Origin: a virus
Lineage: Duplodnaviria; Heunggongvirae; Uroviricota; Caudoviricetes
IMG/VR virus record: IMGVR_UViG_3300042564_000253
Direction: 5' to 3' (one strand)
Length of the DNA: 64,000 nt
A program made the position numbers and the translations under genes. The notes under the pieces were generated by a model. That model had not been told where the DNA came from. It made no database searches and was given only the letters and a program-made list of their open reading frames with translations. The number at the start of each line of letters is the position of its first letter. Within the stretch, counting starts at the first letter, position 1. Below are positions 6,619-63,540 of this stretch, in pieces.

Positions 6619-6704
6619 AATAATAATGTTAGCAAATGTAATTTAAAAATTTGGATCTACCAAGAGCGATAATGATTTTTGTTAATTTACTCTAACTGAA
6701 ATAG

Positions 6705-9767: not shown

Positions 9768-9785
9768 ATTGAACTTTTGTATGAT

Positions 9786-13837: not shown

Positions 13838-16800
13838 TTAAAGTTGTATGCAATCATCATCCTCACAACTTGATTTAGGTCCATATATTGTTGGTAAATC
13901 GTTTACATTAGATGCTGCTGTTATATCTGTAATTGTATAACACATTCTATCTGGAGGAGACGCTTGGAATGCATATACGTCATACAATGCTAATGATAAT
14001 ATACTTCTATAATCAGTTCCTACACCACCAGTACAAGGTGTAAATGTGTAATAATTATAACTTGGTGGTGTTATAGTGGTGGTAGTACTAGTTGTAGTTG
14101 TTGTTGTAGTACTAGTAGTAGTTGTTGTAGTAGTTGTACAATTTGTACAAGCTGCTGTTCCTTCTAATGTACAAGGAGACTCTGTTACCACTGCTGTACC
14201 AGATAGGTTACAGTAGTATATAACTGTTGTAGTAGTAGTTGTGGTAGGAGAAGGAATCTCTGTTACAGCCACTGCTGAGATGTTACAACCTTCATTTAAT
14301 CCTGAATAGAAGAAATTGTTTTCTCCTATGTAGAAGTTAGGTATGTATGTATGAAAGCTCACCCAACTCTTAGTATTAAAGTTGAAGGATACTGTCCATG
14401 ATTTATTACAGAAATAGTTTAAGTCTGTTATTTCAACATATCTCTTAACTGAAGTGTTTCCAGCTACAGGTTGATTTACATAAAACTCTTTAGTCAACTC
14501 ATCATATAATACGTTCTTATCTGGCTGAGGGATATAGTCTAACTTAGTGATAATCACTCTATCATACTTACTATCATACACACCATGAAGACCAATGTTT
14601 TTAAAATGATTATCTATGTCAACAGTAGGATAGTATCTCAATATCTCAAATGACAAATGGTCTGTAAAGAATCTGTTAAGACCAGAACCATATCCAGATA
14701 TGTCAGTTGCTTGGGTACCAGTTATTAAGAATATCTGTCCTCTCTTAGCATCTACAGTTATTTGTCCTTGAGGTATCTTAAGTAAGAACTTATTCTGACT
14801 ACCCACATATCCAAGATCTGTCTCAGCATAATCTATAGGAGGTGGTTCAACACTGCTGAATAATGAAGGATTACCTAAATAAGCTGCTTGAGGATTGCTT
14901 GTATTCACTGTTAACATGTTACCATATAACAATGTCTTGTTCTCAAATCTAGCTAACGTAGCTCTGTTCTGTATACCATCTAAAGATACTAGATTACCAT
15001 AGTTCTGAGGAAAATCAAAGAAACTTATTGGACGATATATCAACCAGCTATTTATTCTGTTATCAGAATAACTTTCTTGTCTATCAGAGTATATTGCTCT
15101 GAATGGAAAGTATGTATAACATAATTGTTGTTTCCAATCTGAAGGCAAATGAGAAAAGAAATTCTCTGTGTTTTGCTTAGAAAAAGTATTATTGTAATAG
15201 TATGTATTATCAAATGTAATAGGCACCACTGATTCTTGGAACCAAGTATCAGGAATACCTGAGCTTACGTGTGGGTAGAAGTCACCTTCTAAGTTATTAA
15301 AGGCTTGACGTAAGTCTATATTGATAGAAGTTTCTACATAGTAATAAGGAACACCATAAGCAAATGTATACATCTTACCATCATATACATAGTTTTGGTT
15401 ACCAAGTAATGTTGTACCTGGAGCAGGTGTTGTAGAAGAAGTAGTAGTGGTAGTATTAGGATCATCTACTTTAGTATTATTAGGACAGTCTAGATAATTA
15501 GCTTTTACTGATATAATGTTCTTCATCAAAGTACCACCTACATAATAGTCATACAATACAGATCTAGCAGAATACCAATATTGTGGATATGCTACATTAC
15601 CTATCTCATCATAAAATATATCAGAATCATCTGGAGCTCCCACTCTATTATCAATAAAGAATGGTAGTTTAGTTTTAAATCCAAACTTACCAATAAATGT
15701 ATCTCCACCAAATATCACTTCAGGATCAGGAGAAGGCAATGCTCCAAATATTCTTTGGAATCCTGTATCAATAGTTTGATATGAATATATCTGTCCATAT
15801 TGACCATTGTTAATTGTCTTTATAGAACCATAATATGAAACAACCTTTATAGGTTCCTGAAACTCAGGGGCTCCACAATTTCCTCTTTGTGAAAGTGTAA
15901 ATCTTGAGTTATCACTAATCTTACTTGTTCCTGCTACGACAAGAGAAGTTGTTTGGTTAGGGTATGGTAAAGGTGCTACAAATGCACCATTTCTATTTTC
16001 AATACTTTTAGTGTAAACAGATGATTCTCTGTTCCAGTTATTAAGATCAAGATCATCTCCTACATTCTGTACACCAGGGAATACGTATTGATATCTATCA
16101 AGCTCTCTTTGTTTAATTCCTTGATTGTTTTGAATATCTGCACTATAGTCATAGCTAGATATAGAGTTGAAAGAATATGCAAAGTTTCTTCTAGTAGCAC
16201 CATTTACATATATCTGTAAATAAGTTTGGTATGCTGTGAACATTGCTGTGGCACTAAATCCACCTAGATCAGCAATCTTTTTACTAGAGTTCAATGCATC
16301 TATTTGTGCTTGTATAGTAAGAAGTCTATACATTGAATGTTTCTTCACTTGAACAAAGTGAGCTCTACCAGCTCCAAATAATACACTCTCAAGCTTAAGA
16401 ACAGATCCTAATGTAGGTTGTCCAAAAGAAGTTTCTGGTGAATTAAATACTTGTCTATATGGAGATTGAGCATTATTAAATCCATCTAGTTGATCAGGAA
16501 AACAATTCATATTTACACTACTTCCTGCAACTATTGTAAATTTATCACAACCTGATACAAACACAGGAGTACCAATTGAATTAACTGTTTCTGAAGTACC
16601 TTTTTCTACAATTATAAATTCTGTAACTAATGTAACAGGATTTTGATAACTGAAAGTAGGACTTGGTTGAAAACTTAAAAATCCATTACATCCATTTTGT
16701 GCAGAGATTATAAAAGTTTCAGGTGTAACATTTTGAAACGTAGCAGTACCAGTATTTATAACAGGAAGTGTAAGAGAACACACTTCAGTGGTTGCTGTAG

Positions 16801-18838
16801 TAAATTCAAGACTAGTTACTTCTCCTGTATTGCAACTTGTATATTGTAAAGCACCATTAACAGTGGCTGTAACTTTGTATGTATCACATTGAGACATGTA
16901 CGAATTACTATCCTGAAGTAAGAATGGATCTTTAGCAAGATCATTATATGGATAGTTAGGATAGTAGTATTCTGTTTCTTCTCTTTTATATTTACCTACA
17001 TTTCTTAATATACCTTTAGCAATAATAGATTTGTTTGTAGATCTATTACCTCTAACTATTTTAAATCCAACAATAGCATCTTTCTCAGCATCTGTTAAGC
17101 TAGAAGATTGAATAAGAAATCCTACTTGTTGTACATCTATCTTTACACCTATTGGATAAATAGCGTTAGATGATTGCATCACTGGTTCTATTTGACCTCC
17201 AACATATGTAATAGGAGGAGTCTCAAAATAAGGAGAAACTAATACATCAGGAAATTTATGATGTCTAATTGGTTCACCAGCAAGATCTCCCCATACATCT
17301 ACATTACAAGGATATGTATCTGTGGATTCCCAATAAGAAAAGTCTCCAGATTGGTATGGGTAGGCTTCTCCTATTTTACCAGCATCTCCTATAGGAACAG
17401 GATATGTAACTAATACACTACCTGTATTATATATTTTCCAATAAGGAGCTACAGTTCCTTCTCCAATAAAGTCAGCATTAGTATTATATACAGGAGTTAA
17501 ATCAGTAGAAATTGCTGTTCTACCAGGAATGTGAAAACCATCTGTTTGTTTACCATTGTCTAATAAAAAGACTATTTCAAAGGCATACACTTCATCTCTT
17601 AAATATCCTCTAAGATTAGCAGTGTAGAAACCATCAGCATATGTATTGTTAGCTGGTAACTTATATGTCTCCCATTGAAGTTGAATTTGACTAGCAATGC
17701 TTTGATAGTTAATCCTATCAATAGAAGTGAGATTGTCCCAAACTATAACATCTTGTACGTTTGTAAGGTCTTGAGCAATTTCATAATAAGGAAACTTCTC
17801 AAGTATGTCAGGAAGACTTAAAGGAATATTAGTTGAAGCTTGACCTGTATAAGTGATTGTTCTGTCTTTATCTTGGATATTATAAGTACCCATAAGTTCT
17901 ACAGATGTACCACCATTTATAGTTTTAATAATAGCTATATTAAAATATTGGAAGTATCCTGTAATATCTATATTATTTATACTTATTACAATAGATTTTC
18001 CTACAGAATATTGAAAGTCAGGAGTTGTTACTTCTGTATTTGCAATTGATGTAGGATTAGTAATAGAGTAGTAGGATGTATATGCATCACCTGAAGCATT
18101 ACAATATTGAATAGCAAACTGATATGTACCAGCTTGAATATCTCCACCTACAACAATATCAATAATGTCCAAGCTAGGAATGCTAAAGTTAGGTTGTACT
18201 TTTAACTTGTTACAATCAAGTGTAGGAGGAAGTTGGATTTGTGGATTACAATTATCCTCATTAAGATAAGCAGCAATATATGGAACCTGATCAATGTTAA
18301 TAAATCTTCTTGGATTAAGACCATCTGTCCAATAAACCTCAGTGCTACAGTTGGTAATCTTATGTACAGCTTTATGAATAGGATAGTCAATGTTAAAGTT
18401 TAAACAAGTTGAATTTGCACAAACAGTTAAGTCTGTATCAGGGATTGGAGTACACAATGTACGATATACACAGTCATTGTTTTCCATATATCCTATCTCA
18501 CTTCCTCCTGTTTCAGGATTAGCTAAGAAGAATATGTGTTTGTTTTTCTCTTGTATAAAATGTGTTCCAATAAGTTGATAGCCTTCAGGAAACTCTAGAC
18601 AAGCTTCATTACCAGGCTCGTTTTGATAGTTTACAGAATTAGCATCAAAGTTTTCTAGTGCTGCGTTTAGTGCATAGGAAAGTTTTCCCTTCTGTACTTG
18701 ATTTACAGAAGAGTCCATATCTAGTCCAATTCTTCCAAGATTAAATTCTTGTTTTATGTTAGATGGTCCTTCTTGGTTATCTGCCATATCTTGAGCTTCT
18801 GTTTGGTAATTCATATTGTGCAAAACGTTGTAAGTCAT
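13838..18838 (-). CDS. Giant tail/baseplate-associated protein, 1666 aa, with poly-Thr linkers.
   Basis: A 5 kb uninterrupted ORF. The C-terminal region contains T7-T8 runs (TTTTTTTTSTTTTTTTSTTTT) and a Thr/Ser/Pro linker (NTTTTTSSTTPAPGTT). Confidence 0.65.
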   Translation of the reverse strand: MTYNVLHNMNYQTEAQDMADNQEGPSNIKQEFNLGRIGLDMDSSVNQVQKGKLSYALNAALENFDANSVNYQNEPGNEACLEFPEGYQLIGTHFIQEKNKHIFFLANPETGGSEIGYMENNDCVYRTLCTPIPDTDLTVCANSTCLNFNIDYPIHKAVHKITNCSTEVYWTDGLNPRRFINIDQVPYIAAYLNEDNCNPQIQLPPTLDCNKLKVQPNFSIPSLDIIDIVVGGDIQAGTYQFAIQYCNASGDAYTSYYSITNPTSIANTEVTTPDFQYSVGKSIVISINNIDITGYFQYFNIAIIKTINGGTSVELMGTYNIQDKDRTITYTGQASTNIPLSLPDILEKFPYYEIAQDLTNVQDVIVWDNLTSIDRINYQSIASQIQLQWETYKLPANNTYADGFYTANLRGYLRDEVYAFEIVFLLDNGKQTDGFHIPGRTAISTDLTPVYNTNADFIGEGTVAPYWKIYNTGSVLVTYPVPIGDAGKIGEAYPYQSGDFSYWESTDTYPCNVDVWGDLAGEPIRHHKFPDVLVSPYFETPPITYVGGQIEPVMQSSNAIYPIGVKIDVQQVGFLIQSSSLTDAEKDAIVGFKIVRGNRSTNKSIIAKGILRNVGKYKREETEYYYPNYPYNDLAKDPFLLQDSNSYMSQCDTYKVTATVNGALQYTSCNTGEVTSLEFTTATTEVCSLTLPVINTGTATFQNVTPETFIISAQNGCNGFLSFQPSPTFSYQNPVTLVTEFIIVEKGTSETVNSIGTPVFVSGCDKFTIVAGSSVNMNCFPDQLDGFNNAQSPYRQVFNSPETSFGQPTLGSVLKLESVLFGAGRAHFVQVKKHSMYRLLTIQAQIDALNSSKKIADLGGFSATAMFTAYQTYLQIYVNGATRRNFAYSFNSISSYDYSADIQNNQGIKQRELDRYQYVFPGVQNVGDDLDLNNWNRESSVYTKSIENRNGAFVAPLPYPNQTTSLVVAGTSKISDNSRFTLSQRGNCGAPEFQEPIKVVSYYGSIKTINNGQYGQIYSYQTIDTGFQRIFGALPSPDPEVIFGGDTFIGKFGFKTKLPFFIDNRVGAPDDSDIFYDEIGNVAYPQYWYSARSVLYDYYVGGTLMKNIISVKANYLDCPNNTKVDDPNTTTTTSSTTPAPGTTLLGNQNYVYDGKMYTFAYGVPYYYVETSINIDLRQAFNNLEGDFYPHVSSGIPDTWFQESVVPITFDNTYYYNNTFSKQNTENFFSHLPSDWKQQLCYTYFPFRAIYSDRQESYSDNRINSWLIYRPISFFDFPQNYGNLVSLDGIQNRATLARFENKTLLYGNMLTVNTSNPQAAYLGNPSLFSSVEPPPIDYAETDLGYVGSQNKFLLKIPQGQITVDAKRGQIFLITGTQATDISGYGSGLNRFFTDHLSFEILRYYPTVDIDNHFKNIGLHGVYDSKYDRVIITKLDYIPQPDKNVLYDELTKEFYVNQPVAGNTSVKRYVEITDLNYFCNKSWTVSFNFNTKSWVSFHTYIPNFYIGENNFFYSGLNEGCNISAVAVTEIPSPTTTTTTTVIYYCNLSGTAVVTESPCTLEGTAACTNCTTTTTTTTSTTTTTTTSTTTTITPPSYNYYTFTPCTGGVGTDYRSILSLALYDVYAFQASPPDRMCYTITDITAASNVNDLPTIYGPKSSCEDDDCIQL

Positions 18839-46788: not shown

Positions 46789-47517
46789 GTGAAAAATCAG
46801 ACATTAAAGAAAGACAGTAAACAATCATTCTCCTATTTAGCAGGTATTAACAGAGCTATTAATCCAGCTCAAGTAACAAAATTAGCAGTATCAGTAAACA
46901 AAATGGGTATTATTAGACCTGTTGTAGTAGCTTACATAGCATTTTTAGATGGTATTAAGAAATTATATATCATTGATGGTCAGCATTTGTTCAATGCATT
47001 GATTAGAAACAACATGGATATTCCATATGTTATAATTGATGTAAAGGATAAGACAGATCTTGTTGAGAAGATAGCATTGCTTAATGCATCCTCAAAGAAT
47101 TGGACAATGTTAGATTATATCACAGCATGGGCATCATTAAGTCAAGATTATATAAAGCTTAATCATTACTATCAGGTGTATGATATTGATCTTGCTACAT
47201 TAGCCACTATATTAATGAATGGTTCAGTAGATGGTAGTGGTACAGTAAGAACTATTAAAAATGGTCAATTTAAGATTGTAGATGAAAAGTTTAATGTATC
47301 AATACTTGATTATGTAACAGATCTATTGAAAGTTATACCAAGAATGGCTAGGAATGACAATAGATATGCTGCAAGAGAATATGTTAAGTTTTTAAGAAAC
47401 ACAAAGACTTACAATCATAAGAAGTTTATAGAAAATCTTAAGAAGAACAAGAAAGAGTTTATATTAGCCACTCAAGAAGATGGCAAACTAGTTGAATTAT
47501 TCACTAAATTAAAATAA
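46789..47517 (+). CDS. ParB-like nuclease (ParB/Srx N-terminal) domain protein, 242 aa.
   Basis: KLAVSVNKMGIIRPVVV...YIIDGQHLFNAL parallels ParB LAESI..GLLQPIVV...YEIIAGERRWRAA. The start is a GTG or a downstream ATG. Confidence 0.5.
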   Translation: MKNQTLKKDSKQSFSYLAGINRAINPAQVTKLAVSVNKMGIIRPVVVAYIAFLDGIKKLYIIDGQHLFNALIRNNMDIPYVIIDVKDKTDLVEKIALLNASSKNWTMLDYITAWASLSQDYIKLNHYYQVYDIDLATLATILMNGSVDGSGTVRTIKNGQFKIVDEKFNVSILDYVTDLLKVIPRMARNDNRYAAREYVKFLRNTKTYNHKKFIENLKKNKKEFILATQEDGKLVELFTKLK

Positions 47518-48688: not shown

Positions 48689-50641
48689 ATGAATGTACTA
48701 ATCTATGATATTGAAACACTGAAAGAACTGTTTCTTATTGTTATATACAATCCAGAGAGTGATGTAACATACGAGTTTCAGGTGAGTAGGTGGACCAATC
48801 AATTAGATGGATTCATTAGATTCACTGAACAACACGATGAGCATTATTGGGTGGGCTACAACAACTTACGCTTTGATAGTCAGGTTGTTGAGCATATAAT
48901 TAGGAACTATGAGAATTGGCATGAGTTGAGTGGACTAGAGATATGTGCTATGATAGCACAGAAAGCTGCAGACACAATACATGATGCTAATTATGATGTA
49001 TTCCCTGAATATAGAGAGGAATGGTTATCACTAAAACAGTTAGACCTATTCAAGATTAATCATTATGATAACAAGAATAGAATGGTCTCACTAAAAAGGT
49101 TAGAGTTTGAGATGGATCTGGAGAACATTGAAGAGATGCCCATCCATCATACTAAAGAGAACATGACTCAGGATGATATATCTATAACAATAGACTACTG
49201 TCGTAATGATGTTATGGCTACGTATGAATTCTATAAGGTAACAACAGGTAACACTAACCATCCACTATACAAGGGTAATAATCAGATAGAGCTTAGACAA
49301 GATATATACGAAGAGTTTGGCATTCCATGCTTAAACTATTCAGATAGTAAGATTGGTGATGAGATGATTAAGAAATACTATTGCCAAGAGAAAGGTATAC
49401 AGTATTCTGATCTACCAAAGAAAGGACTATTTAGAACTGAAGTTAAGGTGAGAGATTGTATTGCTGATTACATATCATTCCAGACACCAGAGCTGCAAGC
49501 ATTCTTAAAGAAGGTTAGTAGGGAGCGTTTGACAATGAAGGATGAGTTCAAAGAATCATTAATGTTTTATGAAAATATATACACGTTTGCCAAAGGTGGC
49601 TTACATACAGAAAATAAACCCAAAGTATTTGAAGCTGATGATGACAACATTATTGTTGATTGGGATGTTAGCTCTTACTATCCAGCTATTATTATTAATA
49701 ATGGCAGATATCCTGGTCATTTGGGTAAAGAGTTTCTTTTAGGATATAGGGCTATGTTTGAGAAAAGACTTGAACTAAAGCCATTAGCTAAGAAGGATAA
49801 GAAGATAGCAGGTATTGTTGGTGCATTAAAGCTTGCAGTTAACTCTGTGTATGGTAAGTCTAGTGATATGTTGTCTTGGATCTATGATAGACAACTAACT
49901 ATGTTCACCACTATTACAGGTGAATTGAGTCTTCTTATGCTCATCGAAGCATATGAATTAGCTGGTATACATGTTATATCTGCAAATACAGATGGTGTAA
50001 CTATTATGGTTAATAAATCACTAATAGATAAGATGCATGAGATAAACAAGTGGTGGATGAATATAACTAGCTATGAGCTTGAACGCACTGATTATCAAAA
50101 GATTATATTCTCTACAGTAAATGACTATTTAGCAATTAAAACCAATGGAGAAATTAAAAAGAAAGGAGATTTCCTTACTGACTTTGAGCTGCACAAAAAT
50201 AAGAGTGCTAGGATTGTACCTATTGCACTGGAGCAGTTTTTTGTTAATGATGTGCCTGTGGCTACCACTATTTGTAATCACACAAATATTTATGACTATT
50301 GTCTCAGACAGAAAGCTAGTAAAGACTTTCACTATGAAGGCCACTCGAAAGAAAACAGAACAGTCTACAATAAACTTATCAGATATTATGTAAGTAATAC
50401 AGGAGAGAAGTTATTGAAGGTTAAGAATGAGAATTCAGATAGCACAGCTGTTGATGTATCACAAGTGGAAGCAGGTGAATGGGTGATGAAAGTATGTAAT
50501 CATCTATTACCAGATCATCCTCTGGATAACATCAATCATGCATATTATATAGAGCGTGCTGAGAGAATCATGCACAAAATACAGTATGAAGGTAGAAAGC
50601 GTAAAATTATTATTAATCCAAATCAATTAAATTTATTCTAA
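48689..50641 (+). CDS. Family B DNA polymerase with a 3'-5' exonuclease domain, compact at 650 aa.
   Basis: Exo I YDIET, Exo II YNNLRFDSQVV, Exo III YCRNDVMATY, PolB motif A DVSSYYPAII, motif B KLAVNSVYGK, motif C region ISANTDGVTI. Confidence 0.8.
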   Translation: MNVLIYDIETLKELFLIVIYNPESDVTYEFQVSRWTNQLDGFIRFTEQHDEHYWVGYNNLRFDSQVVEHIIRNYENWHELSGLEICAMIAQKAADTIHDANYDVFPEYREEWLSLKQLDLFKINHYDNKNRMVSLKRLEFEMDLENIEEMPIHHTKENMTQDDISITIDYCRNDVMATYEFYKVTTGNTNHPLYKGNNQIELRQDIYEEFGIPCLNYSDSKIGDEMIKKYYCQEKGIQYSDLPKKGLFRTEVKVRDCIADYISFQTPELQAFLKKVSRERLTMKDEFKESLMFYENIYTFAKGGLHTENKPKVFEADDDNIIVDWDVSSYYPAIIINNGRYPGHLGKEFLLGYRAMFEKRLELKPLAKKDKKIAGIVGALKLAVNSVYGKSSDMLSWIYDRQLTMFTTITGELSLLMLIEAYELAGIHVISANTDGVTIMVNKSLIDKMHEINKWWMNITSYELERTDYQKIIFSTVNDYLAIKTNGEIKKKGDFLTDFELHKNKSARIVPIALEQFFVNDVPVATTICNHTNIYDYCLRQKASKDFHYEGHSKENRTVYNKLIRYYVSNTGEKLLKVKNENSDSTAVDVSQVEAGEWVMKVCNHLLPDHPLDNINHAYYIERAERIMHKIQYEGRKRKIIINPNQLNLF

Positions 50642-50829: not shown

Positions 50830-51083
50830 TGGCAAAGATAAATAGAGAAAACATAGGCGATCATCTTGTTAGTTATCAACTAGAAATGGTTGGTAAGTCT
50901 ATGCAAGAAGCATATATGACAAAAGAGTGGTACAGCAAATGGACTATGACTCAAGAACAACATGATCAGTTCAAAGCATACGCTATACCATTAATGAAAA
51001 AAGTATTTAAAATAAACAAAGCAAGAGCTGAAGCAAACTTTCAATGGTTTGATTTAGAGTTTGGCTTACGTATTAAAGATTAA
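50829..51083 (+). CDS. Small hypothetical protein, 84 aa.
   Basis: ORF. Confidence 0.4.
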   Translation: MAKINRENIGDHLVSYQLEMVGKSMQEAYMTKEWYSKWTMTQEQHDQFKAYAIPLMKKVFKINKARAEANFQWFDLEFGLRIKD

Positions 51084-51094
51084 AAAACACAATT

Positions 51095-51646
51095 ATGGGA
51101 GCAAGTTGGTTTGAAATGACAGCATATGGTAAAACATTATCAGATGCATATACTAATGCTGTTGCAGAAGCAGAAGTAGAATCAGGAAATGATTCATATA
51201 ATGGTACAATTAGTACAACACATCAATGTTCAGATCTTACAGATCAATTTAGAAGAAGTAAAAAAAGCTTTGATGAGTATGTAAAGATGCAAGTAGATAA
51301 GCTTAGCAAAAGAGACTGTGCTGGCATATGTATATTAGATCCAATTGTTAATAAGAACAAGACAAAGTCTCAAGTGGAGCATGTAGTTACACCAGGTACG
51401 AAGAAATGGGTACTTAAATATGAAGTGGAAAAGTATTTTGAAGATGGAGTGATTGCTTCATGCATGACCAAAGGTGAGGCTGTTAAAATGGCTAGAGCAT
51501 ATACAGAAAAGAATCAACAGTCTACAAGAATTGTAATGCGTAAGGTGTTAATCAAATTTGATCCAACAGTAGCTAAGATAACATACAAGAAGTCTACAAC
51601 AGAGAGAGCAGGTAAATACATACTCTTTGGTTGGGCTGCAGAATAA
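51095..51646 (+). CDS. Hypothetical protein, 183 aa.
   Basis: ORF. Confidence 0.45.
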   Translation: MGASWFEMTAYGKTLSDAYTNAVAEAEVESGNDSYNGTISTTHQCSDLTDQFRRSKKSFDEYVKMQVDKLSKRDCAGICILDPIVNKNKTKSQVEHVVTPGTKKWVLKYEVEKYFEDGVIASCMTKGEAVKMARAYTEKNQQSTRIVMRKVLIKFDPTVAKITYKKSTTERAGKYILFGWAAE

Positions 51647-52069: not shown

Positions 52070-52664
52070 GGAGCTGACTAAAGCTGGCTACAGCTTAGAC
52101 ATGTTATGCTTCATAACACTTGTTCAAGAAGGCAATGATGTAGATGAAATGTGTACAGATGATAGTAAGATGAAAATGTTACATCAAACTGTACGCAGAA
52201 AAGGTCTATTGTCAGAGTCAAATAAGATTACTATCATAGGTAATGAAGTTTTGTCTTTTCTTAATGAGAAGATAGAGCAACCTAAGATAGTTAAGAAGAA
52301 GAAAACAGATTCTGACTTTGATAAGTGGTGGATGATGTACCCAGGTACTGACACCTTCACATATAAAAGTCAATCATTTACAGGTACACGTGGTATGCGT
52401 GTAAAGAAAGATGAGTGTAAAATCAAATTCGACAGCATTGTTGGAGAAGGCGAGTACAAACCTACAGAGCTCATAGCAGCATTAGAATACGAAATACTGC
52501 AGAAGAAAGAGAATTCAATTAAGACAAAAGTCAATAGACTTACATTTATGCAGAACAGTCTCACCTATCTCAACCAGAGGTCATTTGAACCATTCATTGA
52601 GTTGATAAGAGATGGTAAGACGATTAAAGAATCTGCTGAACCAATTAAAGGTATGGATATATGA
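52038..52664 (+). CDS. Hypothetical protein, 208 aa.
   Basis: ORF whose end overlaps the helicase start (ATGA). Confidence 0.45.
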   Translation: MNLTLTFSHFKELTKAGYSLDMLCFITLVQEGNDVDEMCTDDSKMKMLHQTVRRKGLLSESNKITIIGNEVLSFLNEKIEQPKIVKKKKTDSDFDKWWMMYPGTDTFTYKSQSFTGTRGMRVKKDECKIKFDSIVGEGEYKPTELIAALEYEILQKKENSIKTKVNRLTFMQNSLTYLNQRSFEPFIELIRDGKTIKESAEPIKGMDI

Positions 52665-53722
52665 GTTTTGAAGATTTAAAACGAGAAGTTCAAGCAGGCC
52701 TAGATGGTAGAAACAATGGTATACCAATGGGCTTTGAAAGATTGAACAGATATATTGGCATCAGAAAGTCTATGTACACACTGATAGGTGGCCTCACTGG
52801 ATCAGGTAAAACTAGCTTCTTAGATGATGCATATGTTTTAAATCCATTTGATTGGTTTATCAGTCAGAAGACTCCAGGTCTTAAGTTAAAGATCATATAC
52901 AGATCTATGGAACGTAGCAGAACATACAAATATGCTAAATGGGTTGCAAGAAAGATATTTCTAGACCAAGGTGTAATCATTCCTGTTCCCAAGCTATTAG
53001 GTTGGACAGAGAAGATGACTCCTGATGAGCATGATCTGTTCCTGATGTATGAGGATTACCTTGAAAGTATGAAAGAGGTAATTACAATTATGGATGGACC
53101 AGAGAATCCAATAGGTATAGCTAAGCATCTAAAAGACCACGCATTGGCTAATGGTACAATAGAAGAAGTAGATCAATACAATAAGAAGTACATTCCTAAT
53201 AATGAGAATGAAATCACTATTGTTGTTATTGACCATATAGGTTTATTAAAGCCAACTAAAGACTATCCTACAAAGAAACAGACAATTGACAAGATGTCTG
53301 ATGAGCTGAGATATGCTCGTGACATGTATGGATACAGTCCTGTAATTGTCAGTCAATTCAACAGAGACATAAACAATCCTATTAGGATCAAAAATGGTGA
53401 TGTAGAACCACAGCTAGAAGACTTTGCTGATAGTTCACAAACACAGAACGATGCTGATGTTGTCCTAGCATTGTTTGATCCCATGCGATATAAAGTAGCA
53501 GACCCTTCAGGATATGACCTGAACAGACTCAGAGATGAGTTTGGTGCTAAGTATTTCAGATCATTAAGACTAATTAAGAATAGTTATGGGGAAGATGATG
53601 TGAGGATTGGTTTGGGGTTCCTTGGCCAGATTGGTATGTTCAAAGAACTACCTAAGGTTAAGTATATGAATGAGAGTATATATAATGATATTATTAGTAA
53701 AACATTCTTTTTAAATAAATGA
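52661..53722 (+). CDS. DnaB-like replicative helicase (RecA-fold C-terminal domain), 353 aa.
   Basis: Walker A LIGGLTGSGKTSFL, Walker B IVVIDHIGLL, and an SQFNRD motif resembling DnaB SQLNR. Confidence 0.7.
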   Translation: MSFEDLKREVQAGLDGRNNGIPMGFERLNRYIGIRKSMYTLIGGLTGSGKTSFLDDAYVLNPFDWFISQKTPGLKLKIIYRSMERSRTYKYAKWVARKIFLDQGVIIPVPKLLGWTEKMTPDEHDLFLMYEDYLESMKEVITIMDGPENPIGIAKHLKDHALANGTIEEVDQYNKKYIPNNENEITIVVIDHIGLLKPTKDYPTKKQTIDKMSDELRYARDMYGYSPVIVSQFNRDINNPIRIKNGDVEPQLEDFADSSQTQNDADVVLALFDPMRYKVADPSGYDLNRLRDEFGAKYFRSLRLIKNSYGEDDVRIGLGFLGQIGMFKELPKVKYMNESIYNDIISKTFFLNK

Positions 53723-56848: not shown

Positions 56849-57853
56849 ATGATTACTGGAGAAAGAAAGACAAAGATGTCTATAGAAGCTATTCTAAGTA
56901 GGATATCAGAGTATGATATATTTAGGTATTATATGCCTAATCAAGATTGGAAGATTAACAGAGTAACCTATTCTCCATTCAGGCATGAGAACAATCCATC
57001 ATTTATGATTGGTAACAAGATGGGCTATCTAATGTTTATAGACTATGCTGATACTAGTCTTCGTGGTGATTGTTTTAATTTTGTTCAGAAACTTCATAGC
57101 CTTCCTAGCGTCAGTGATACTTTGAAGATGATAGACAGAGACTTTGGTCTAGGTTTCTCTACAGGTATCATGACAGGAGAGTACAAGAAGATTATATCTG
57201 AATACAAACAGCCTGAGATAGAGAAGAGATATTCCCTGATTCAAGTCAAGACTAGAAAGTTCACTAATAGAGAACTTGAGTATTGGGCAGAGTATCACCA
57301 GGATCTCCAGGACCTCAGAGATAACAATGTGTATTCTATCAAAGAACTATATCTTAATAAGCAAAGGTTCCCATTAGGAGAAGACGAGCTTAGATTTGGT
57401 TACCTTTATGAAGGACAGTATTGGAAGATATATAGGCCATATGCTGATAAGAAGCATAAGTGGATGCCTAATAATGTTCCTATCACAGCAATGGATGGTA
57501 AAGAGAATATAAAAGACTGCAGCGTAGCATTCATCAACAAGAGTAAAAAAGACTTTATGGTGATGAAGAAGATATTCCCATGCAGCTGTGCTGTCCAGAA
57601 TGAAGGACTAGGATGTTTCTCACATGACAATGTAGAATATCTAAAAGCAAACTCTGATAGACAAATACTTAGCTTTGATGCTGATGATGTAGGTGTACAG
57701 AATTCTGTACAGATTACAAAGATGTTTGACTTTGACTATACTAACGTCCCACGTCAGTATCTAGCAGAAGGCATTAAAGATTGGGCAGATCTTGCAAAAG
57801 CCCATGGATTACAAGCAATTGAAGATTATTTAAAAAGTAAAAACCTGTTATAA
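56849..57853 (+). CDS. Putative DNA primase (TOPRIM-domain), 334 aa.
   Basis: ILSFDADDVG fits the TOPRIM DxD motif. It lies in the replication module next to the helicases. Confidence 0.45.
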   Translation: MITGERKTKMSIEAILSRISEYDIFRYYMPNQDWKINRVTYSPFRHENNPSFMIGNKMGYLMFIDYADTSLRGDCFNFVQKLHSLPSVSDTLKMIDRDFGLGFSTGIMTGEYKKIISEYKQPEIEKRYSLIQVKTRKFTNRELEYWAEYHQDLQDLRDNNVYSIKELYLNKQRFPLGEDELRFGYLYEGQYWKIYRPYADKKHKWMPNNVPITAMDGKENIKDCSVAFINKSKKDFMVMKKIFPCSCAVQNEGLGCFSHDNVEYLKANSDRQILSFDADDVGVQNSVQITKMFDFDYTNVPRQYLAEGIKDWADLAKAHGLQAIEDYLKSKNLL

Positions 57854-58614
57854 TGGATACATTTAACACCACAAAGGAACTGTTGATGAATACATCAGTT
57901 CCAGTACAAACACGTACATATAAACCAGTGAGTCATTCATCATTGATTGACCTTACACTAAACAGTATTGAGAAAGCAGGATTTGTCTTAGACAAAGAAA
58001 CTTATTCTTCAGCTAGAGATGGTAGTATTGCTAATGGTAGATTCTCTATCAGCAATGTAGCAGACAGTGAGATGCAATTGCAAATTGGTTGGCAGAATAG
58101 CTATGACAGAAGTATGAGCTTGAAGTTTGCTATTGGTACAAGAATTATGATATGCTCTAATGGTTGTGTATCAGGAGACTTTGGTGCCTTTAAGAAAAGA
58201 CACAAAGGTGACATCCAAGACTTCACACCAGGTGCTATCACTGATTACATCAAAGGTGCAGGTGAAGCGTTCGTTCTTATGCAAACTCAAAGAGAGTCTA
58301 TGAAGCAAATAGAAATCACTAAGCGTACCAAAGCTGAGTTAGTTGGTAGAATGATGCTAGAAGAGCAGTTCATTACATCTACACAGTTAAACATCATCAG
58401 TAGAGAGTTAAAAGCTCCTACACATGATTACAATGCTAAGGATAGTTTATGGGAGTTGTACAACTACACAACATTTGCTATGAAAGAGGCACACCCATCT
58501 CAATGGATGGAAAGTCATATACAAGCACATGCATTCTTCAATAACTATGCGTATGATCAATCAGCACCATGGGAATCAGAAGAAAAGGCATTTACACAAT
58601 TAGAAATATTTTAG
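57853..58614 (+). CDS. Hypothetical protein, 253 aa.
   Basis: ORF with an ATGG overlap to the upstream gene. Confidence 0.45.
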   Translation: MDTFNTTKELLMNTSVPVQTRTYKPVSHSSLIDLTLNSIEKAGFVLDKETYSSARDGSIANGRFSISNVADSEMQLQIGWQNSYDRSMSLKFAIGTRIMICSNGCVSGDFGAFKKRHKGDIQDFTPGAITDYIKGAGEAFVLMQTQRESMKQIEITKRTKAELVGRMMLEEQFITSTQLNIISRELKAPTHDYNAKDSLWELYNYTTFAMKEAHPSQWMESHIQAHAFFNNYAYDQSAPWESEEKAFTQLEIF

Positions 58615-58615
58615 T

Positions 58616-59332
58616 ATGAATTGGGATAAATTTAAAGATCAGTTTCATCCTTCTTGGCATAGGTTTATGCAACCTTTCATTGAAAGTGAAGCATGTGATA
58701 AGATTTATAAATATCTCAAAGCTGAAAGTCAGAGGGGCAAGAAGATTGCTCCTCTCTCTCAGAATGTTTATAGATGCTTTTATGAGACACCTTATGATGA
58801 ACTAAAACTAGTCATGGTAGGTATGTGTCCTTATCACTCTATGAAGAATGGAGAATATGTAGCAGATGGTTTGTTAATGGGCTGTTCAACAACAGGTATA
58901 TTACAACCATCTCTAATAAAATTCTATGATGGTATTGAGAAAGAGATGTTTAATGGTCTTTGCGTAACATGTGAAAGACCACCAGATATATCCTTCTTAG
59001 CCAAACAAGGTATCCTTATGTATAACGCAGCTTTGACTACAGAGATTAATAAAGCAGGCTCTCACATTGATTTGTGGGAACCCTTTACTAAGTATCTGTT
59101 TGAAGAAGTGTTAGCTACTACAGGGGTACCAGTTGTGTTTCTAGGTAAAGATGCAGCTAAATATACAAAATATGTTGCACCATTTACATGGAGTTTCACA
59201 ATGAGTCATCCTGCCAGTGCGTCTTATAAACAAACTGATTGGGATACAGAAGGCACATTCACAAAAATTAACAAATTATTAAAGGAAAACAACAATCTAG
59301 CGATAGATTGGATGTTAGACACACCTTTTTAA
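58616..59332 (+). CDS. Uracil-DNA glycosylase superfamily protein with a variant active-site motif, 238 aa.
   Basis: KLVMVGMCPYHS aligns with UNG KVVILGQDPYHG with Cys in place of the catalytic Asp. VVFLGKDA and SHPASAS align with UNG VVFLLWGS and HPSPLS. Confidence 0.55.
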   Translation: MNWDKFKDQFHPSWHRFMQPFIESEACDKIYKYLKAESQRGKKIAPLSQNVYRCFYETPYDELKLVMVGMCPYHSMKNGEYVADGLLMGCSTTGILQPSLIKFYDGIEKEMFNGLCVTCERPPDISFLAKQGILMYNAALTTEINKAGSHIDLWEPFTKYLFEEVLATTGVPVVFLGKDAAKYTKYVAPFTWSFTMSHPASASYKQTDWDTEGTFTKINKLLKENNNLAIDWMLDTPF

Positions 59333-59343
59333 ACGACACAATT

Positions 59344-59706
59344 ATGTATACAGTTAAACATGGTGGAGATATCCACAGAGGAGATTTAATAGCAGTTTCT
59401 AATGGTAATGATTTTAGTATTGGCATTTATTATGGTAGAGGTTCAGGTAGTACAGTTCAGTATTATACACCTTCAGGAGTAGTTGAATCTAAAAGCTGGT
59501 GGGAAAAATATCAAACAGATAAAGCATATGCTCATAATGGCAAACCTTGGGGATTAACTAGAATTTGGAAGAGTTTTATAAATACACCAAGAGAAACAAG
59601 AATTCTTAAATTGAACAGAGAGAATATTACAGATGAACAAACAATAAAAGATATAATAGAAGCAAAAGAAATACTTAAACAATTTAACATTCCAGTAAAC
59701 TACTAA
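59344..59706 (+). CDS. Hypothetical protein, about 120 aa.
   Basis: Internal Met of listed ORF 59308..59706, preceded by the cacaattATG context. Confidence 0.4.
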   Translation: MYTVKHGGDIHRGDLIAVSNGNDFSIGIYYGRGSGSTVQYYTPSGVVESKSWWEKYQTDKAYAHNGKPWGLTRIWKSFINTPRETRILKLNRENITDEQTIKDIIEAKEILKQFNIPVNY

Positions 59707-59708
59707 TT

Positions 59709-62060
59709 ATGATATTAGAAAAACAAACAGAATCACACATCCTTGAAGAAGGAAGTACACAGGAAACTGTGAAAATGTCACTAGACTTAGATTCTGCACA
59801 AGTATTGATGCAGATGTTAAGTAAGAATCTATATTCAGATTCAATAGGCTCTACTATCAGAGAATGTGCATCTAATGCACTAGATAGTCACAGAAGAGCT
59901 GGATGTGACAAGCCTGTTATTGTTTCATTTAAAAGAAACAATCAGGCAAATACATATGAATTTGCTGTTGAAGACTTTGGTATTGGCTTAGATGCAGATG
60001 ATGTGCGTAACATTATCAGTAAGTATGGTAAGTCAACCAAGCGTAACAGTAATACAGAATTAGGCATGATGGGTCTTGGTTTCAAAGCTCCATTAGCATA
60101 TAGCTCTAGCTTCTACTTTATATGTAGAAAAGATGGTATGGAACGTAAGTATATGATGTACGAAGGAGAGGATACAAACAGTATTGATCTTTTGTATGAA
60201 ACACAAACTACAGAAGGTAATGGTGTAAAGGTTATTGTTCCAGTTGACTATTCTGATAGATATACTTTCCATAATAAGATTAAGGAGCAATTGGCTTATT
60301 TTGAGAGTGTGTATTTTGATGTAGAACCAATGGGTAGCTACAATGTTCCTAATGATTTTACAATACATAGAGCTGCACATTTTCAATATTCTCAAATAGC
60401 TATGAACAGTGACATGCATTTATGTCTAGACAATGTTAGCTATCCAATTGACTGGGAGAAGCTTGGTATTGAAAGAATACGTATGAAGATGGCTTTGAAA
60501 TTTAGTCTTAGTGATGGATTATTTCCTACACCAAACAGAGAAGCTATTAGATATACTAAAGAAGCTAAAGAAACCATTCTAAAGAAGATAGTTACAGTGG
60601 CTAATGTGTTTATGGATAAGTTTAACGAGGCCATCACTACACAAAGTGATATCAAAGCTATTATGGAGTTTTATGGTCAAAATAGTAAACATATAAAATC
60701 CTGGTACAAAGGTACAGATGAAGATATTTGTATAGATGATCTTGTACATCATTCTACTGTAGCTGTAGCACAGCCTAAACTAGATAACATAAAGTTGTTG
60801 AACTTAGAAAGACTTGCTGTAAAGTCTAAAGAGTATGTACTTGCTGAGTATAAGTTTAAATATAGATTTAGCAATGGTAAGTTTCAAAATAGTAAGAACT
60901 ATCACTATGAGCATTTGAGAATTTCAGACTTTACAAGTTATAACTTTGGTGGTGTATATATTTATGATGATTCCCTTCCTAAAGGTAAGCAAGACTATTT
61001 AAGATCTATTTTGCCAGATAATAAAACTATATATTTTGTTAAGAAATCACCATTTAAGCTTAGAAGCAAGACTGGTCAGATTGATTATGCTAAGTATTAT
61101 GATTCTATTTTAGAGCTTAGCAAATGGCCAAGAGTTCAATGGAGACAGCTTATTCAAGAGTTTCAATATGTAATAGGTCTATATTCTAAAGACTTTATAG
61201 ATGCAGATGCTATTGATATACCACAATCATTCAAGGATGCTCAAAAAGCTAAGAGAATGAAGGTAACAATAGCAACAACAGCAGTAAAAGGTCCTAAGAA
61301 GGTTAGATTGAAAGGTGAATTCTCTGGTAAGGTGGGTACAAAAATGCAAATAGATCTATCTGATCAACATTGTAAGTTTGTTCCTACTACATATAAAATG
61401 GAAGACCTCCATAAATTGAAGAAGTTACATGTATATGCTAGAGAAGCTGATAAGAAGACAATGGACAATGCTTGGTCTTGTTTTAATAAACATGCAGTAT
61501 TTGTTATTGTTGCCCAAGCTACATATGACAACTTACAGAAAGCAGATTTACATAACTGGATAACATTAGATAAATTTATGGAAGGTAAAAATAGACCATT
61601 TAAAACAATAGCTACAGAATTCCTAATCAGGGATTTGATTGAAAAATATAGTGATTCATTTAAAAGAATTGAAACAGTTAAAGCTATATCTACTGATTTA
61701 GCAGATAAGCTACAGATACTACATCAGTATCATAATAGTCAATATAGAAGTTATTGTGATGAGATCACTAGAAAAGCAATTATAGAACATGCTATAGCAA
61801 ACAATTTATTTGACCAGCCTACATATCTAGTATATCAGCAGGTTAATGAAGTGTTTGAGAAGCTACCTTTCTTAGATCATATGCTAGGAGTAATCTATTA
61901 TGCAAAACAGAATAGTCCTTTGATCAAAGCTCTTACAGACTTATTTAAGTATCACAAACATAGAGTAAATCTAGAGCATTACAAGCTCATATTAACAGAA
62001 GATGCTCCTTTAGAGGAAGTATTAACACAAGACACAATTACAGAATTAGAAACAATTTAA
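59709..62060 (+). CDS. Hsp90/HtpG-like GHKL ATPase, 783 aa.
   Basis: N-terminal domain NLYSDSIGSTIRECASNALDS vs HtpG [20 protein letters not shown], VIVSF...EDFGIGLDADDVRNIISKYGKSTK vs VSF...SDNGVGMTRDEV..LGTIAKSGTK, and G2 box ELGMMGLGF vs GQFGVGF. Bergerat-fold N, G1 and G2 motifs are in the correct order. Confidence 0.55.
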   Translation: MILEKQTESHILEEGSTQETVKMSLDLDSAQVLMQMLSKNLYSDSIGSTIRECASNALDSHRRAGCDKPVIVSFKRNNQANTYEFAVEDFGIGLDADDVRNIISKYGKSTKRNSNTELGMMGLGFKAPLAYSSSFYFICRKDGMERKYMMYEGEDTNSIDLLYETQTTEGNGVKVIVPVDYSDRYTFHNKIKEQLAYFESVYFDVEPMGSYNVPNDFTIHRAAHFQYSQIAMNSDMHLCLDNVSYPIDWEKLGIERIRMKMALKFSLSDGLFPTPNREAIRYTKEAKETILKKIVTVANVFMDKFNEAITTQSDIKAIMEFYGQNSKHIKSWYKGTDEDICIDDLVHHSTVAVAQPKLDNIKLLNLERLAVKSKEYVLAEYKFKYRFSNGKFQNSKNYHYEHLRISDFTSYNFGGVYIYDDSLPKGKQDYLRSILPDNKTIYFVKKSPFKLRSKTGQIDYAKYYDSILELSKWPRVQWRQLIQEFQYVIGLYSKDFIDADAIDIPQSFKDAQKAKRMKVTIATTAVKGPKKVRLKGEFSGKVGTKMQIDLSDQHCKFVPTTYKMEDLHKLKKLHVYAREADKKTMDNAWSCFNKHAVFVIVAQATYDNLQKADLHNWITLDKFMEGKNRPFKTIATEFLIRDLIEKYSDSFKRIETVKAISTDLADKLQILHQYHNSQYRSYCDEITRKAIIEHAIANNLFDQPTYLVYQQVNEVFEKLPFLDHMLGVIYYAKQNSPLIKALTDLFKYHKHRVNLEHYKLILTEDAPLEEVLTQDTITELETI

Positions 62061-62070
62061 AAAGAAAAAC

Positions 62071-63540
62071 ATGCTAAGTTTGAAATGGTTTAAAGGTGCT
62101 ATTGAACGCACAATTGAAAAGGTAGTAGAAAACAAAATTGAGCAGGCTTTTAACCAGTTGGATAATGAGGAGGGGCAGACAGCCCCTTCTTATCATTCTT
62201 CAGGAAAGCCCTATCTAAACATTAAAATGGTTAATGAAACATTAACTATTGTAATGAATGATGGTAATATCATTACCAAATCTCCAGCAACATCAGAACA
62301 TTTCAATGCTGCTAGAGATTGTAAAACAGAAGCTTGTCTATTTGATCTTGTGAGTACACAGGAGATAAAAGATGAGAGAAGAAAAGCTGAAGCTGCTTAT
62401 GAGAAAGCTAAAGCTATTCAAAGAGGTGCTGAATTCTTAGCTACACTAAAGGAATTTGAGATGAAAAATGGTTCTCTTTATTTAAAGGGTATCAATAGAA
62501 GTCTACCTCCATTACTAGTGGAAGAGTTCTTAGAAGTGGTTGGTAAACATGGTAACACAGATAGTGATGAATTCAATGCTTTGCATAGATTCTTTATGTG
62601 GTGTTGCTTGAACCCAAGAGCTGAAGTTGCAAATGATCTATTCAACTTCTTAAAGAAGAATAGCTTCAGCATCACTAAACAAGGCTTCTTTGTAGCATTA
62701 CGTAATGTTGTTACATTACATGGTTCTACAGAATTAGTACAATTCATAAGCAATGCATATAATAAAGTGAAGGCTGTATGGAAGAAGAAGCCTGATGAGT
62801 ATTTTGTATTCCTAGAGAATGGTGAATATAAAATGGTTCATGGAGAAGCTATGTATAAAAAAGAAACATGCACATGTTCTTATTGTGATGGTACAGGAAC
62901 CATTCCTGAGTGTGATGAGTGGGAAGATAGTGAAGAGTGTTGTGAGTGTGATGGTACAGGTGAATATGAAGATCTTGTTCTTGCAGTTAAAGGTGAAAAT
63001 CTTGGTAACTTAACAGACTTATATCTTGATTTGCCTAATAGAGCAGAGAATAGATTTACAGATGCTCATACAAAAACATTTGACATCAGAATTGGTAGAC
63101 CAGTGAATATGCCTATGGAAGAGTGTAATTGGTCAAGAGCAGATTGTGCACATGCAGGATTACACTTTACTAGTGATGAGATTCATTATGTAGGTTGTGG
63201 TGATACGAGCGTTCTTATACTTATTAACCCAATGAAGGTTGTAGGTATTGGTGAGTCAAAAGGTAGATGTTATGAGTATTTACCAATTATGACTGTGCCA
63301 CGTGAGGAAGCAACAGAAATCTTACATGATCTAGACTTTGATACTCTTGAGTTAGATGAGTCTTATGCTGTACGTGAATTAGATAACCTTGCTGAGAAGG
63401 CTAAGGAAGGATTCACAGCTGAGGCTATGAAATATGATTTCAATCTTCCTGCCCTATCTGCAGTAGAAGTTTATACAATTGTTAAGAGTCTTGATGAAAT
63501 AAAGCAAGAAATATCTAAAAGAATTGTAGAAATTGATTAA
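62071..63540 (+). CDS. Hypothetical protein with DnaJ-type CxxCxGxG zinc-finger repeats, 489 aa.
   Basis: CSYCDGTG and CCECDGTG within TCTCSYCDGTGTIPECDEWEDSEECCECDGTGEYED. Confidence 0.5.
   Translation: MLSLKWFKGAIERTIEKVVENKIEQAFNQLDNEEGQTAPSYHSSGKPYLNIKMVNETLTIVMNDGNIITKSPATSEHFNAARDCKTEACLFDLVSTQEIKDERRKAEAAYEKAKAIQRGAEFLATLKEFEMKNGSLYLKGINRSLPPLLVEEFLEVVGKHGNTDSDEFNALHRFFMWCCLNPRAEVANDLFNFLKKNSFSITKQGFFVALRNVVTLHGSTELVQFISNAYNKVKAVWKKKPDEYFVFLENGEYKMVHGEAMYKKETCTCSYCDGTGTIPECDEWEDSEECCECDGTGEYEDLVLAVKGENLGNLTDLYLDLPNRAENRFTDAHTKTFDIRIGRPVNMPMEECNWSRADCAHAGLHFTSDEIHYVGCGDTSVLILINPMKVVGIGESKGRCYEYLPIMTVPREEATEILHDLDFDTLELDESYAVRELDNLAEKAKEGFTAEAMKYDFNLPALSAVEVYTIVKSLDEIKQEISKRIVEID

Follow-up and report, generated by a model that had tools for sequence, protein, structure and literature searches.

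A uracil-DNA glycosylase fold with a remodelled active site

What role remains for a uracil-DNA glycosylase (UDG) in a phage once the aspartate of its water-activating loop has been replaced? The question is raised by a gene on the plus strand at 58616..59332 (stop codon included) of a stretch of 64,000 nucleotides from the IMG/VR virus record IMGVR_UViG_3300042564_000253 (Caudoviricetes), referred to below as the window. The active site of family-1 UDGs (UNGs; GQDPYH / HPSPLS) is a textbook case of near invariance, and the 238-amino-acid (aa) protein encoded by this family-1-derived open reading frame (ORF; ATG start, TAA stop) carries GMCPYH in place of GQDPYH. The explanation that we favour, with a probability of about one half, is that the protein serves phage replication as a DNA-binding accessory with a UNG fold, one that may still recognize extrahelical uracil but would excise it slowly or not at all.

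The fold is that of family 1. In a phmmer search of all PDB chains, the sole significant matches were family-1 UNGs, led by the Coxiella enzyme (3tr7, 5.9e-17) and followed by 9pyv, 3cxm, and then the enzymes of E. coli, human, herpesviruses, and poxviruses. An AlphaFold2 model of the protein (pLDDT 88.2, pTM 0.87) retrieved only UNGs among the top 50 PDB matches in Foldseek (probability 1.0, TM 0.72-0.77), and there are further matches to phrog_12143 (1e-30) and to the ung models of NCBIfam (down to 2e-33). The scores of the NCBIfam models nevertheless miss all equivalog cutoffs (TIGR00628, NF00358x/NF00359x; 116 vs 162, 102 vs 223, 91.7 vs 185.75, 76.6 vs 237, and 74.6 vs 143 bits), and the match to the Pfam family UDG (PF03167; 9.2e-6) lies barely over the superfamily threshold (26.2 bits vs a cutoff of 24.3). 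The original prediction, which was made from the nucleotide sequence alone, had placed the protein in the UDG superfamily as a family-1-like member and had proposed a structure-based comparison; both the PDB matches and the Foldseek result bear out this assignment.

Motif A, the water-activating loop, comprises residues G69-M70-C71-P72-Y73-H74 (58820..58837, plus strand), a reading supported by the sequence, the alignments, and a survey of codons. The DNA (gtc atg gta ggt atg tgt cct tat cac, read out directly) places G69 at 58820-22, M70 at 58823-25, the tgt codon of C71 at 58826-58828, and H74 at 58835-37. The phmmer alignments set GMCPYH on GQDPYH and HPASAS on HPSPLS, and the same register follows when the protein is aligned with E. 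coli Ung by MAFFT: Cys71 sits on the catalytic Asp (E. coli D64 / human D145) and Met70 on the Gln of GQDPYH. A second motif A with an intact Asp, which had been named as a finding that would overturn the original prediction, is present nowhere in the 238-aa protein. D84 (in ADGLLMGC), the sole Asp in the vicinity that is invariant, is no compensating replacement, because it is equally conserved in Asp-bearing relatives. Both the exchange of the motif-A Asp for Cys and the retention of the motif-B His in SHPASAS, as originally proposed, thus agree with the DNA letters and with independent alignments.

The remainder of the site is a mixture of retained and altered positions. Motif B (S197-H198-P199-A200-S201-A202-S203; 59204..59224, plus strand), as placed by the alignments and relatives, keeps His198 (cat, 59207-59209), but the position of the Leu intercalation finger is occupied by Ala202 (HPASAS vs HPSPLS); the adjacent Tyr204 is invariant and might stand in as a wedge for the absent finger. 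Tyr73, which excludes thymine, is kept and aligns to the Tyr of UNG in the MAFFT alignment. Also kept is the uracil-specificity Asn (human N204), which corresponds to Asn137 (aac; 59024..59026, plus strand) and shows synonymous AAC/AAT variation. The uracil-stacking Phe (E. coli F77 / human F158) has become Met88 (58877..58879, plus strand).

With family-1 UNGs, the protein shares the fold, homology over the full length, and the residues Pro46, Phe55, Pro72-Tyr73-His74, Gly85, Ser99-Leu100, Gln131-Gly132, Asn137, Leu140-Thr141, His150, Trp154, Phe157, Gly177, and His198-Pro199. It differs from them in the changes Asp to Cys, Gln to Met, stacking Phe to Met, Leu finger to Ala, and Gly-Ser loop to Gly-Lys, and also in being encoded in a phage replication module. 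Judged by its sequence, the protein is a UNG homologue that departs from family 1 in defining features (motif-A Asp and Gln, Leu finger, stacking Phe, and equivalog scores).

Conservation and selection in the close family

The gene belongs to an abundant lineage. In a public assembly collection, 122 blocks contain the identical protein, and homologues number 1181 (E <= 1e-3) in a database clustered at 90% and 5557 in a library of 50%-identity representatives. Among the 120 closest clusters, motif A reads GMCPYH in 107, GMAPYH in 11, and G[LF]CPYH in 2, with Asp in none. Cys71 is present in 63 of 63 relatives from IMG/VR (57-98% identity; codon TGT in 56 and TGC in 7), although one of the scan patterns behind this sample contained MCPYH and may bias it toward Cys.

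In the same 63 relatives, Met88 is always encoded by ATG, and Y73, H74, N137, H198, and P199 never change while their codons vary synonymously. The close family has 78 invariant positions, which include the Pro-rich loop QPSL and the GK loop, and the median dN/dS is 0.096 (pairwise Nei-Gojobori, 747 pairs). The pocket residues Tyr73, His74, Asn137, and His198-Pro199, together with the QPSL and G-K loops, are fixed across a divergence at which dS is saturated, and the ORF is intact in all relatives examined. The UNG-like ORF is a real, selected gene, the product of neither chance nor sequencing error.

Catalytically dead orthologues in the same position

There is also evidence for a function that is independent of catalysis. 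Eight representatives with 37-49% identity to the protein share its N-terminus (FHxSW...KPFIESExCDxIYxxLK) but have the motif-B His deleted or substituted; several of them additionally lack Asn137 and motif A, and all are of full length. In the sub-lineage that carries this N-terminal signature, the motif-B His is missing in 13 of 24 clusters, compared with 9 of the 115 other clusters sampled.

One of the dead orthologues (P0133) reads GPPPSYV at motif A and PDIELY for SHPASA, and has the Asn replaced by His. Its genomic neighbourhood (DnaB, SNF2, AAA_24, a 291-aa ORF, primase, DUF932, the UDG-like gene, small ORFs, rIIA interrupted by a LAGLIDADG endonuclease, and rIIB) has the same order as that of the window, where the UNG-like gene lies between primase/DUF932 and a 120-aa ORF followed by rIIA/rIIB-like genes, with the polymerase, both helicases, and a Sak4-like gene upstream. 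Another dead orthologue (P0135) has an rIIA-like HATPase gene downstream. As the gene persists in the replication module even where all catalytic residues are gone, a selected non-catalytic function is required; on this evidence, catalysis is dispensable in the lineage to which the protein belongs. The location in the replication module and the dead syntenic orthologues favour two of the roles that the original prediction had put forward, namely a repurposed UDG fold acting as a replication factor in the manner of poxvirus D4 and a uracil binder with weak or no excision.

The Ala71 subclade and the role of the thiol

The 11 GMAPYH clusters form a sister subclade; single clusters have up to 177 member sequences, on contigs of up to 114 kb, and their sequences are otherwise intact, His74 included. 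In the DNA of five of these clusters, Ala71 is encoded by GCT in 5/5 and His74 by CAC or CAT; with dS of 0.5-1.2, their dN/dS is 0.08-0.15, the same as in the Cys clade. Because the Ala71 subclade is under the same purifying selection, the Cys thiol is not essential, and the comparison argues strongly against Cys71 as an obligatory nucleophile, metal ligand, or redox switch. A metal site or disulfide formed by Cys71, Cys90, and His74 was considered and rejected: Cys90 is equally conserved in Asp-type relatives, and position 71 may be occupied by Ala or Ser. The original suggestion of a glycosylase with altered chemistry is, as far as the Cys itself would bring this about, weakened by the Ala71 subclade and by the frequency of Ser, which is about as common as Cys in the wider family (24 vs 25).

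Variation of the site across the wider family

The proposed survey of the Asp position among homologues was carried out on the best 150 of the 5557 representatives at 50% identity, aligned with reference sequences. Position 71 is occupied by D in 58, C in 25, S in 24, E in 16, G in 5, A in 4, N in 4, and K in 3 of the 150 representatives; others account for 6 and gaps for 5. The remaining positions of the pocket vary to different degrees: Asn is found at position 137 in 139/150, the motif-B His (position 198) in 119 of the 137 representatives that cover it, and Ala at the position of the Leu finger (202) in 92/150, and the position of the stacking Phe is F in 73, M in 38, and L in 33.

The family falls into two motif-A classes, G-Q-D-P-Y-P and G-[LM]-[CSA]-P-Y-H-[TS], which differ also in the residue at +3: Cys is accompanied by His in 17/20 and Ser in 9/19, whereas Asp is accompanied by Pro in 42/63. 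The other residues of the UNG signature are equally conserved in both classes and are the same as in E. coli Ung. Of the 50%-identity clusters closest to the protein, about one in four belongs to the G-[LM]-[CS]-P-Y-H-[TS] class. His74 does not vary in the Cys/Ala family, whereas relatives with Asp can have another residue in its place. Since a canonical GQDPYH member (P0162) is present within the lineage that shares the N-terminal signature of the protein, His74 is most simply an ancestral residue that stayed in place when Met-Cys replaced Gln-Asp.

Where position 71 has no acid, retention or loss of His74 goes with that of His198 (28/1/17/15, Fisher p ~1e-4; the counts ignore phylogeny), a coupling that is absent in sequences with Asp or Glu. 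This is suggestive of His74 being tied to the active site. A candidate base (D/E71 or H74) is retained by 87% of the pocket-intact representatives, whereas 68% of the pocket-degenerate ones are without either; there are, however, 15 pocket-intact representatives with neither an acid at 71 nor His74. A neighbour-joining tree of the sample is star-like, without support values, and hence unreliable; it implies 44 Fitch changes at position 71, and contrasts between sister pairs are mixed.

Fusions of the UNG-like domain were encountered once each with NADAR (Ser-type, P0155), GIY-YIG (Cys-type, P0143), and DegV (partial UDG, P0200). The NADAR fusion hints at a link to DNA adducts or anti-defence, but as single cases, all three are perhaps fusions created by gene calling.

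Genomic context

The minus strand of the window encodes a terminase, a portal protein, a major head protein, a virion protein of 1665-1666 aa (phrog_37948), and tail fibres. The terminase shares 39% identity with its counterpart in Leptolyngbya phage Lbo-JY46, 31% with those of Cellulophaga phages phi17:2 and phi4:1, and ~28% with those of crAss-like phages. Adjoining the about 1666-aa phrog_37948 protein are three consecutive large ORFs (902, 1020, and 1050 aa) without PHROG match; the four genes lie on the minus strand at 3910-12938 and 13838-18838, and crAss-like phages carry very large virion proteins in that arm.

The replication arm lies on the plus strand and comprises genes for a ParB-like protein, DNA polymerase, a DnaB-like helicase, an SNF2-type helicase, a Sak4-like ATPase, and primase onward. 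The ParB-like gene, which stands early in the arm (46789-47517, plus strand; phrog_12305 at 3.8e-15, Pfam ParB_N below threshold), is carried here by a presumably lytic phage. The polymerase (650 aa; 48689-50641, plus strand; phrog_1252 at 1.5e-140) has no Pfam-A match at E <= 1e-3, and the nearest annotated phage polymerases, from Acinetobacter, Rheinheimera, and Nitrincola phages, are only ~31-34% identical. The gene for the DnaB-like helicase lies at 52661-53722. Between the polymerase region and a 183-aa ORF, two relative contigs carry a SET-domain gene (Pfam SET, 9.3e-14; L006 2078-2479, L009 1875-2246) that is missing from the window (~51083-51095) and from the relative L007, an indel polymorphism of a putative methyltransferase. 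L006 and L009 encode the UNG-like protein in identical form.

Immediately upstream of the UNG-like gene are the primase gene (56849..57853, plus strand; phrog_12622 at 1.6e-31) and a gene for a DUF932 protein (57853..58614, plus strand; Pfam PF06067 at 5.1e-10). The gap between the DUF932 stop codon and the ATG of the UNG-like gene is 1 nt, which suggests translational coupling. Most relatives share the DUF932 neighbour, including the contigs L006-L009, L157, L158, and L163/L164, among them one with a dead orthologue; in L159, which is without DUF932, the primase gene directly precedes the UNG-like gene.

Directly downstream follows the conserved 120-aa ORF (59344..59706, plus strand), which was identified from the ORF list and from relatives and is found at the same place in L006, L157, L160, and L161. 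It has no Pfam or PHROG match and no similarity to crAss001 gp73. Behind the dead orthologues in L162 and L163 there are ORFs of 108-109 aa, and the similarity between the 120-aa ORF and that of L163 is marginal (E = 0.023). The next genes are rIIA-like (HATPase_c_3; 59709-62060, plus strand; phrog_612 at 5.3e-61) and rIIB-like (62071-63540, plus strand; phrog_609 at 5.4e-16). In L163/L164, the rIIA-like gene is apparently split by a LAGLIDADG homing endonuclease (L163 7625-10875).

Beyond the end of the window, contigs with the identical protein encode an HNH endonuclease, a PD-(D/E)XK exonuclease, and a ribonucleotide reductase (RNR). In a close relative (L077 12097-18415, IMGVR_UViG_3300043436_000583), RecA and dUTPase are encoded downstream of RNR. 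The region is syntenic with crAss001, in which exonuclease, RNR, and dUTPase likewise come after the UDG. The presence of a dUTPase in so close a relative argues against a phage with uracil-containing DNA. Following the dUTPase, L077 carries three family-2 glycosyltransferases, an S-adenosylmethionine (SAM) methyltransferase, and an NHL-repeat protein, which may constitute a cassette for glycan or DNA modification. Within 43-56 kb of the window, there are no genes for base modification, dUTPase, or thymidylate synthase, and no base-modification or kinase genes were found near the UNG-like gene.

A megablast search of the locus against INPHARED gave no match, and identification of the phage was therefore by protein-level searches. 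In tblastn, the phage relatives of the UNG-like protein (~26-37% identity) are mostly annotated "UDGs" of Crassvirales (crAss001, cr111_1, cr106_1, DAC15, and IAS virus) and of Flavobacterium FpV4-like phages. From these matches and the gene order, the gene is regarded as the counterpart, in an environmental crAss-like lineage, of the "UDG" that serves as a marker gene of crAss-like phages (PMC7886860).

Comparison with known UDG-fold proteins

The UDGs of crAss-like and related phages (crAss001 Gp74, cr111_1, cr106_1, and FpV4 gp54) are 31-36% identical to the protein and appear to be its orthologues. They resemble it in having an HPA-type motif B without the Leu finger and in their location in a module for replication and nucleotide metabolism, near primase and with PD-(D/E)XK exonuclease, RNR, and dUTPase downstream. 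They differ in motif A, which is GQDPYP in crAss001, cr111_1, cr106_1, and FpV4 but GMCPYH in the protein of the window.

Poxvirus D4 (vaccinia D4 / mpox E4) is likewise a viral UNG-fold protein tied to replication, a tie that in the present case is made by gene context. Within the polymerase holoenzyme of poxviruses, it has a role that does not depend on catalysis (PMC1936997, PMC2630940, PMC3946371). The motifs of D4 (GIDPYP and HPAARD, verified against PDB) resemble those of the Asp-type phage relatives. The match between D4 and the protein is weak (residues 131-233, E ~0.01), and the latter is much closer to cellular UNGs. D4, for its part, still has its catalytic Asp as well as the His, is active as a glycosylase, and acts via the poxvirus-specific A20 bridge to a family-B polymerase. 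Herpesvirus UNGs, too, are described as structural elements of the replisome (PMC5934625).

Among phages, the family-A PolA of N4-like phages contains a UDG domain without catalytic residues (bioRxiv 10.1101/2025.03.26.645540) and provides another case of a phage UDG fold with lost catalytic residues, in which the domain is physically in the replicase. The N4 domain is fused to the polymerase. The UNG-like protein, by contrast, stands alone: its gene lies ~8 kb away from that of the polymerase, and both the uracil pocket and the motif-B His are kept. The PolA-UDG fusions of SP15-like phages, which are active, were dismissed as a model, their UDG domains being of type IV or type II (MUG-like) and fused to the polymerase. 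The aG/PT-PPlases of thymidine hypermodification were set aside on account of their HhH fold (PMC5889632), as opposed to the UDG fold of the protein; the 5-HMUDK kinase with which such enzymes co-occur has no counterpart among the nearby genes. The role in binding modified bases that had originally been considered found no support, given the invariant Tyr and Asn, the dUTPase of the close relative, and the HhH fold of those enzymes.

UdgX is family-4-like, with the motif A GEQPG, of the Fe-S cluster type, and crosslinks via a His in a dedicated loop. The protein of the window has none of these features and no family-4 motifs, all its sequence and structure matches are to family 1, and it shares no more than the superfamily with UdgX. 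UdgX of Mycobacterium smegmatis binds or crosslinks uracil-DNA tightly without turnover (PMC4787834) and can serve as a model of a UDG-superfamily protein that binds uracil but is no repair enzyme. Searches of the literature for a Cys-bearing motif A or for a characterization of the crAss UDG found nothing specific.

A putative replisome component and its alternatives

The retained parts of the protein are the UNG fold, the DNA-contacting loops, and the uracil pocket (Tyr73, Asn137, and His198), and the change from GQD to G-M-C is accompanied by strict retention of His74. In the explanation that we favour, the selected role common to the whole lineage would be a non-catalytic one, that of a DNA-binding or scanning component of the phage replisome, analogous to D4 and to the dead UDG-like domain of N4-like polymerases. 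In the family of the protein itself, flipped-out uracil would still be captured. Without the carboxylate of the Asp, excision should be absent or slow, at MUG/SMUG-like rates at best; in any residual excision, His198 would stabilize the leaving group, and His74 rather than Cys71 would position the water. Association with the replisome, binding of uracil, and attenuated or absent catalysis are the parts of this picture that we infer.

Several points weigh against it. Strict conservation of the uracil pocket would most simply mean continued catalysis, and "mainly structural" would then understate the role of the protein. UDG families 2, 3, and 5 are active without a motif-A Asp, so that loss of the Asp alone is no proof of attenuation. 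The association between positions 71 and 74 is confounded by shared ancestry, and the presumed geometry of Cys71 and His74 rests on homology. No A20-like partner was identified for the protein. The DUF932 and 120-aa ORF flanks are without BLASTP similarity to the flanks of the crAss001 UDG, and a DUF932 - UDG - small-ORF triad common with crAss001 was rejected because neither flank showed such similarity.

The main alternative, possible though doubtful, is that the protein is a fully functional UDG, in which His74 is a relocated general base, for which a small Cys, Ser, or Ala at position 71 makes room, and which removes uracil from replicating phage DNA in the ordinary way, complementing the phage dUTPase. 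The invariance of the uracil pocket and the motif-B His under strong purifying selection, the retention of a candidate base by most pocket-intact representatives and its loss from most degenerate ones, the invariance of His74 where the Asp is gone, the plausible ancestor in the form of P0162, and the dUTPase of the close relative all speak for it. However, the 15 pocket-intact representatives without acid or His74 are difficult to reconcile with such a base, and the frequent complete decay in the same lineage implies that catalysis is dispensable there. Moreover, UNG mutants with Asp changed to Asn or Glu lose ~3 orders of magnitude of activity despite the native His148/His67, which makes His alone a poor substitute in the canonical scaffold. 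The literature can be read both ways: His148 has been proposed as a possible helper of Asp145 in water activation, but replacement of Asp145 decreases activity dramatically (PMC8730318). The replisome role and full glycosylase activity are not mutually exclusive, by analogy with D4, which is both an enzyme and a structural part.

The other alternatives are less probable. Tight, non-cleaving binding to uracil or AP sites in phage DNA as an anti-defence measure, which would protect the DNA from host Ung and AP-endonuclease, e.g., after the action of host deaminases or defences acting on the dNTP pool, would fit the loss of the catalytic Asp from an otherwise preserved pocket, the proximity of the exclusion-related rIIA/rIIB genes, and the NADAR fusion of one Ser-type homologue, a theme of DNA de-ADP-ribosylation and anti-defence. 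Such shielding is rather improbable, as it would be stoichiometrically demanding, does not account for pocket-less orthologues that stay in place, draws on a fusion found in a single example, and would be encoded among core replication genes and not among early or accessory ones. A new chemistry, with Cys or Ser as nucleophile and His74 as its partner, leading to a covalent glycosyl-enzyme, a UdgX-like crosslink, or excision of a modified base, is more improbable still. The interchange of Cys and Ser with a conserved His at +3 is typical of nucleophile-His dyads, position 71 would by homology with UNG lie next to C1', and UdgX sets the precedent of a UDG-fold protein that can crosslink to uracil-DNA (PMC4787834). 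But the Ala71 subclade has persisted for long under the same selection with its other residues intact, Tyr73 and Asn137 point to plain uracil as the base recognized, not to a 5-substituted or otherwise modified one, and no genes for base modification were found in the vicinity. The loss of the Asp and the further decay in relatives could also be taken as marks of a functionless UDG remnant or of a sequencing or assembly artefact; this explanation is effectively refuted by the selection analysis, with dN/dS of ~0.10, 78 invariant positions, an ORF that is intact in all relatives examined, the identical protein in 122 blocks, and the use of both Cys codons.

Implications

A large and abundant phage lineage has remodelled the UNG site, with Asp giving way to Cys, Ser, Ala, or Glu and a coupled switch between Pro and His at +3, and the site has repeatedly been erased while the gene remained fixed in the replication module. 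This provides a bacteriophage parallel to poxvirus D4, the herpesvirus UNGs, and the UDG-like domain of the N4 polymerase, and the analogy suggests that recruitment of the UNG fold as a part of the replisome is a recurrent viral strategy. The concept of the UDG fold as a component of viral replication has precedents; the Cys variant of motif A is undescribed in the literature found.

The annotation "uracil-DNA glycosylase" (JGI) in crAss-like and related metagenomic phages overstates what is known. At the same time, the Asp, Cys, Ser, Ala, and dead forms are naturally occurring variants that could be used to dissect the contributions of Asp145 and His148 to catalysis by UNG. It is conceivable, though unlikely, that G[LM][CS]PYH represents a distinct, undescribed solution in the UNG fold, either a thiol/hydroxyl-imidazole site with altered chemistry or substrate or a non-cleaving "uracil reader". 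If so, environmental crAss-like phages would widely carry what amounts to a new family or function of UDGs, and a uracil reader would allow the phage replisome to sense uracil in the template without creating abasic sites in single-stranded DNA.

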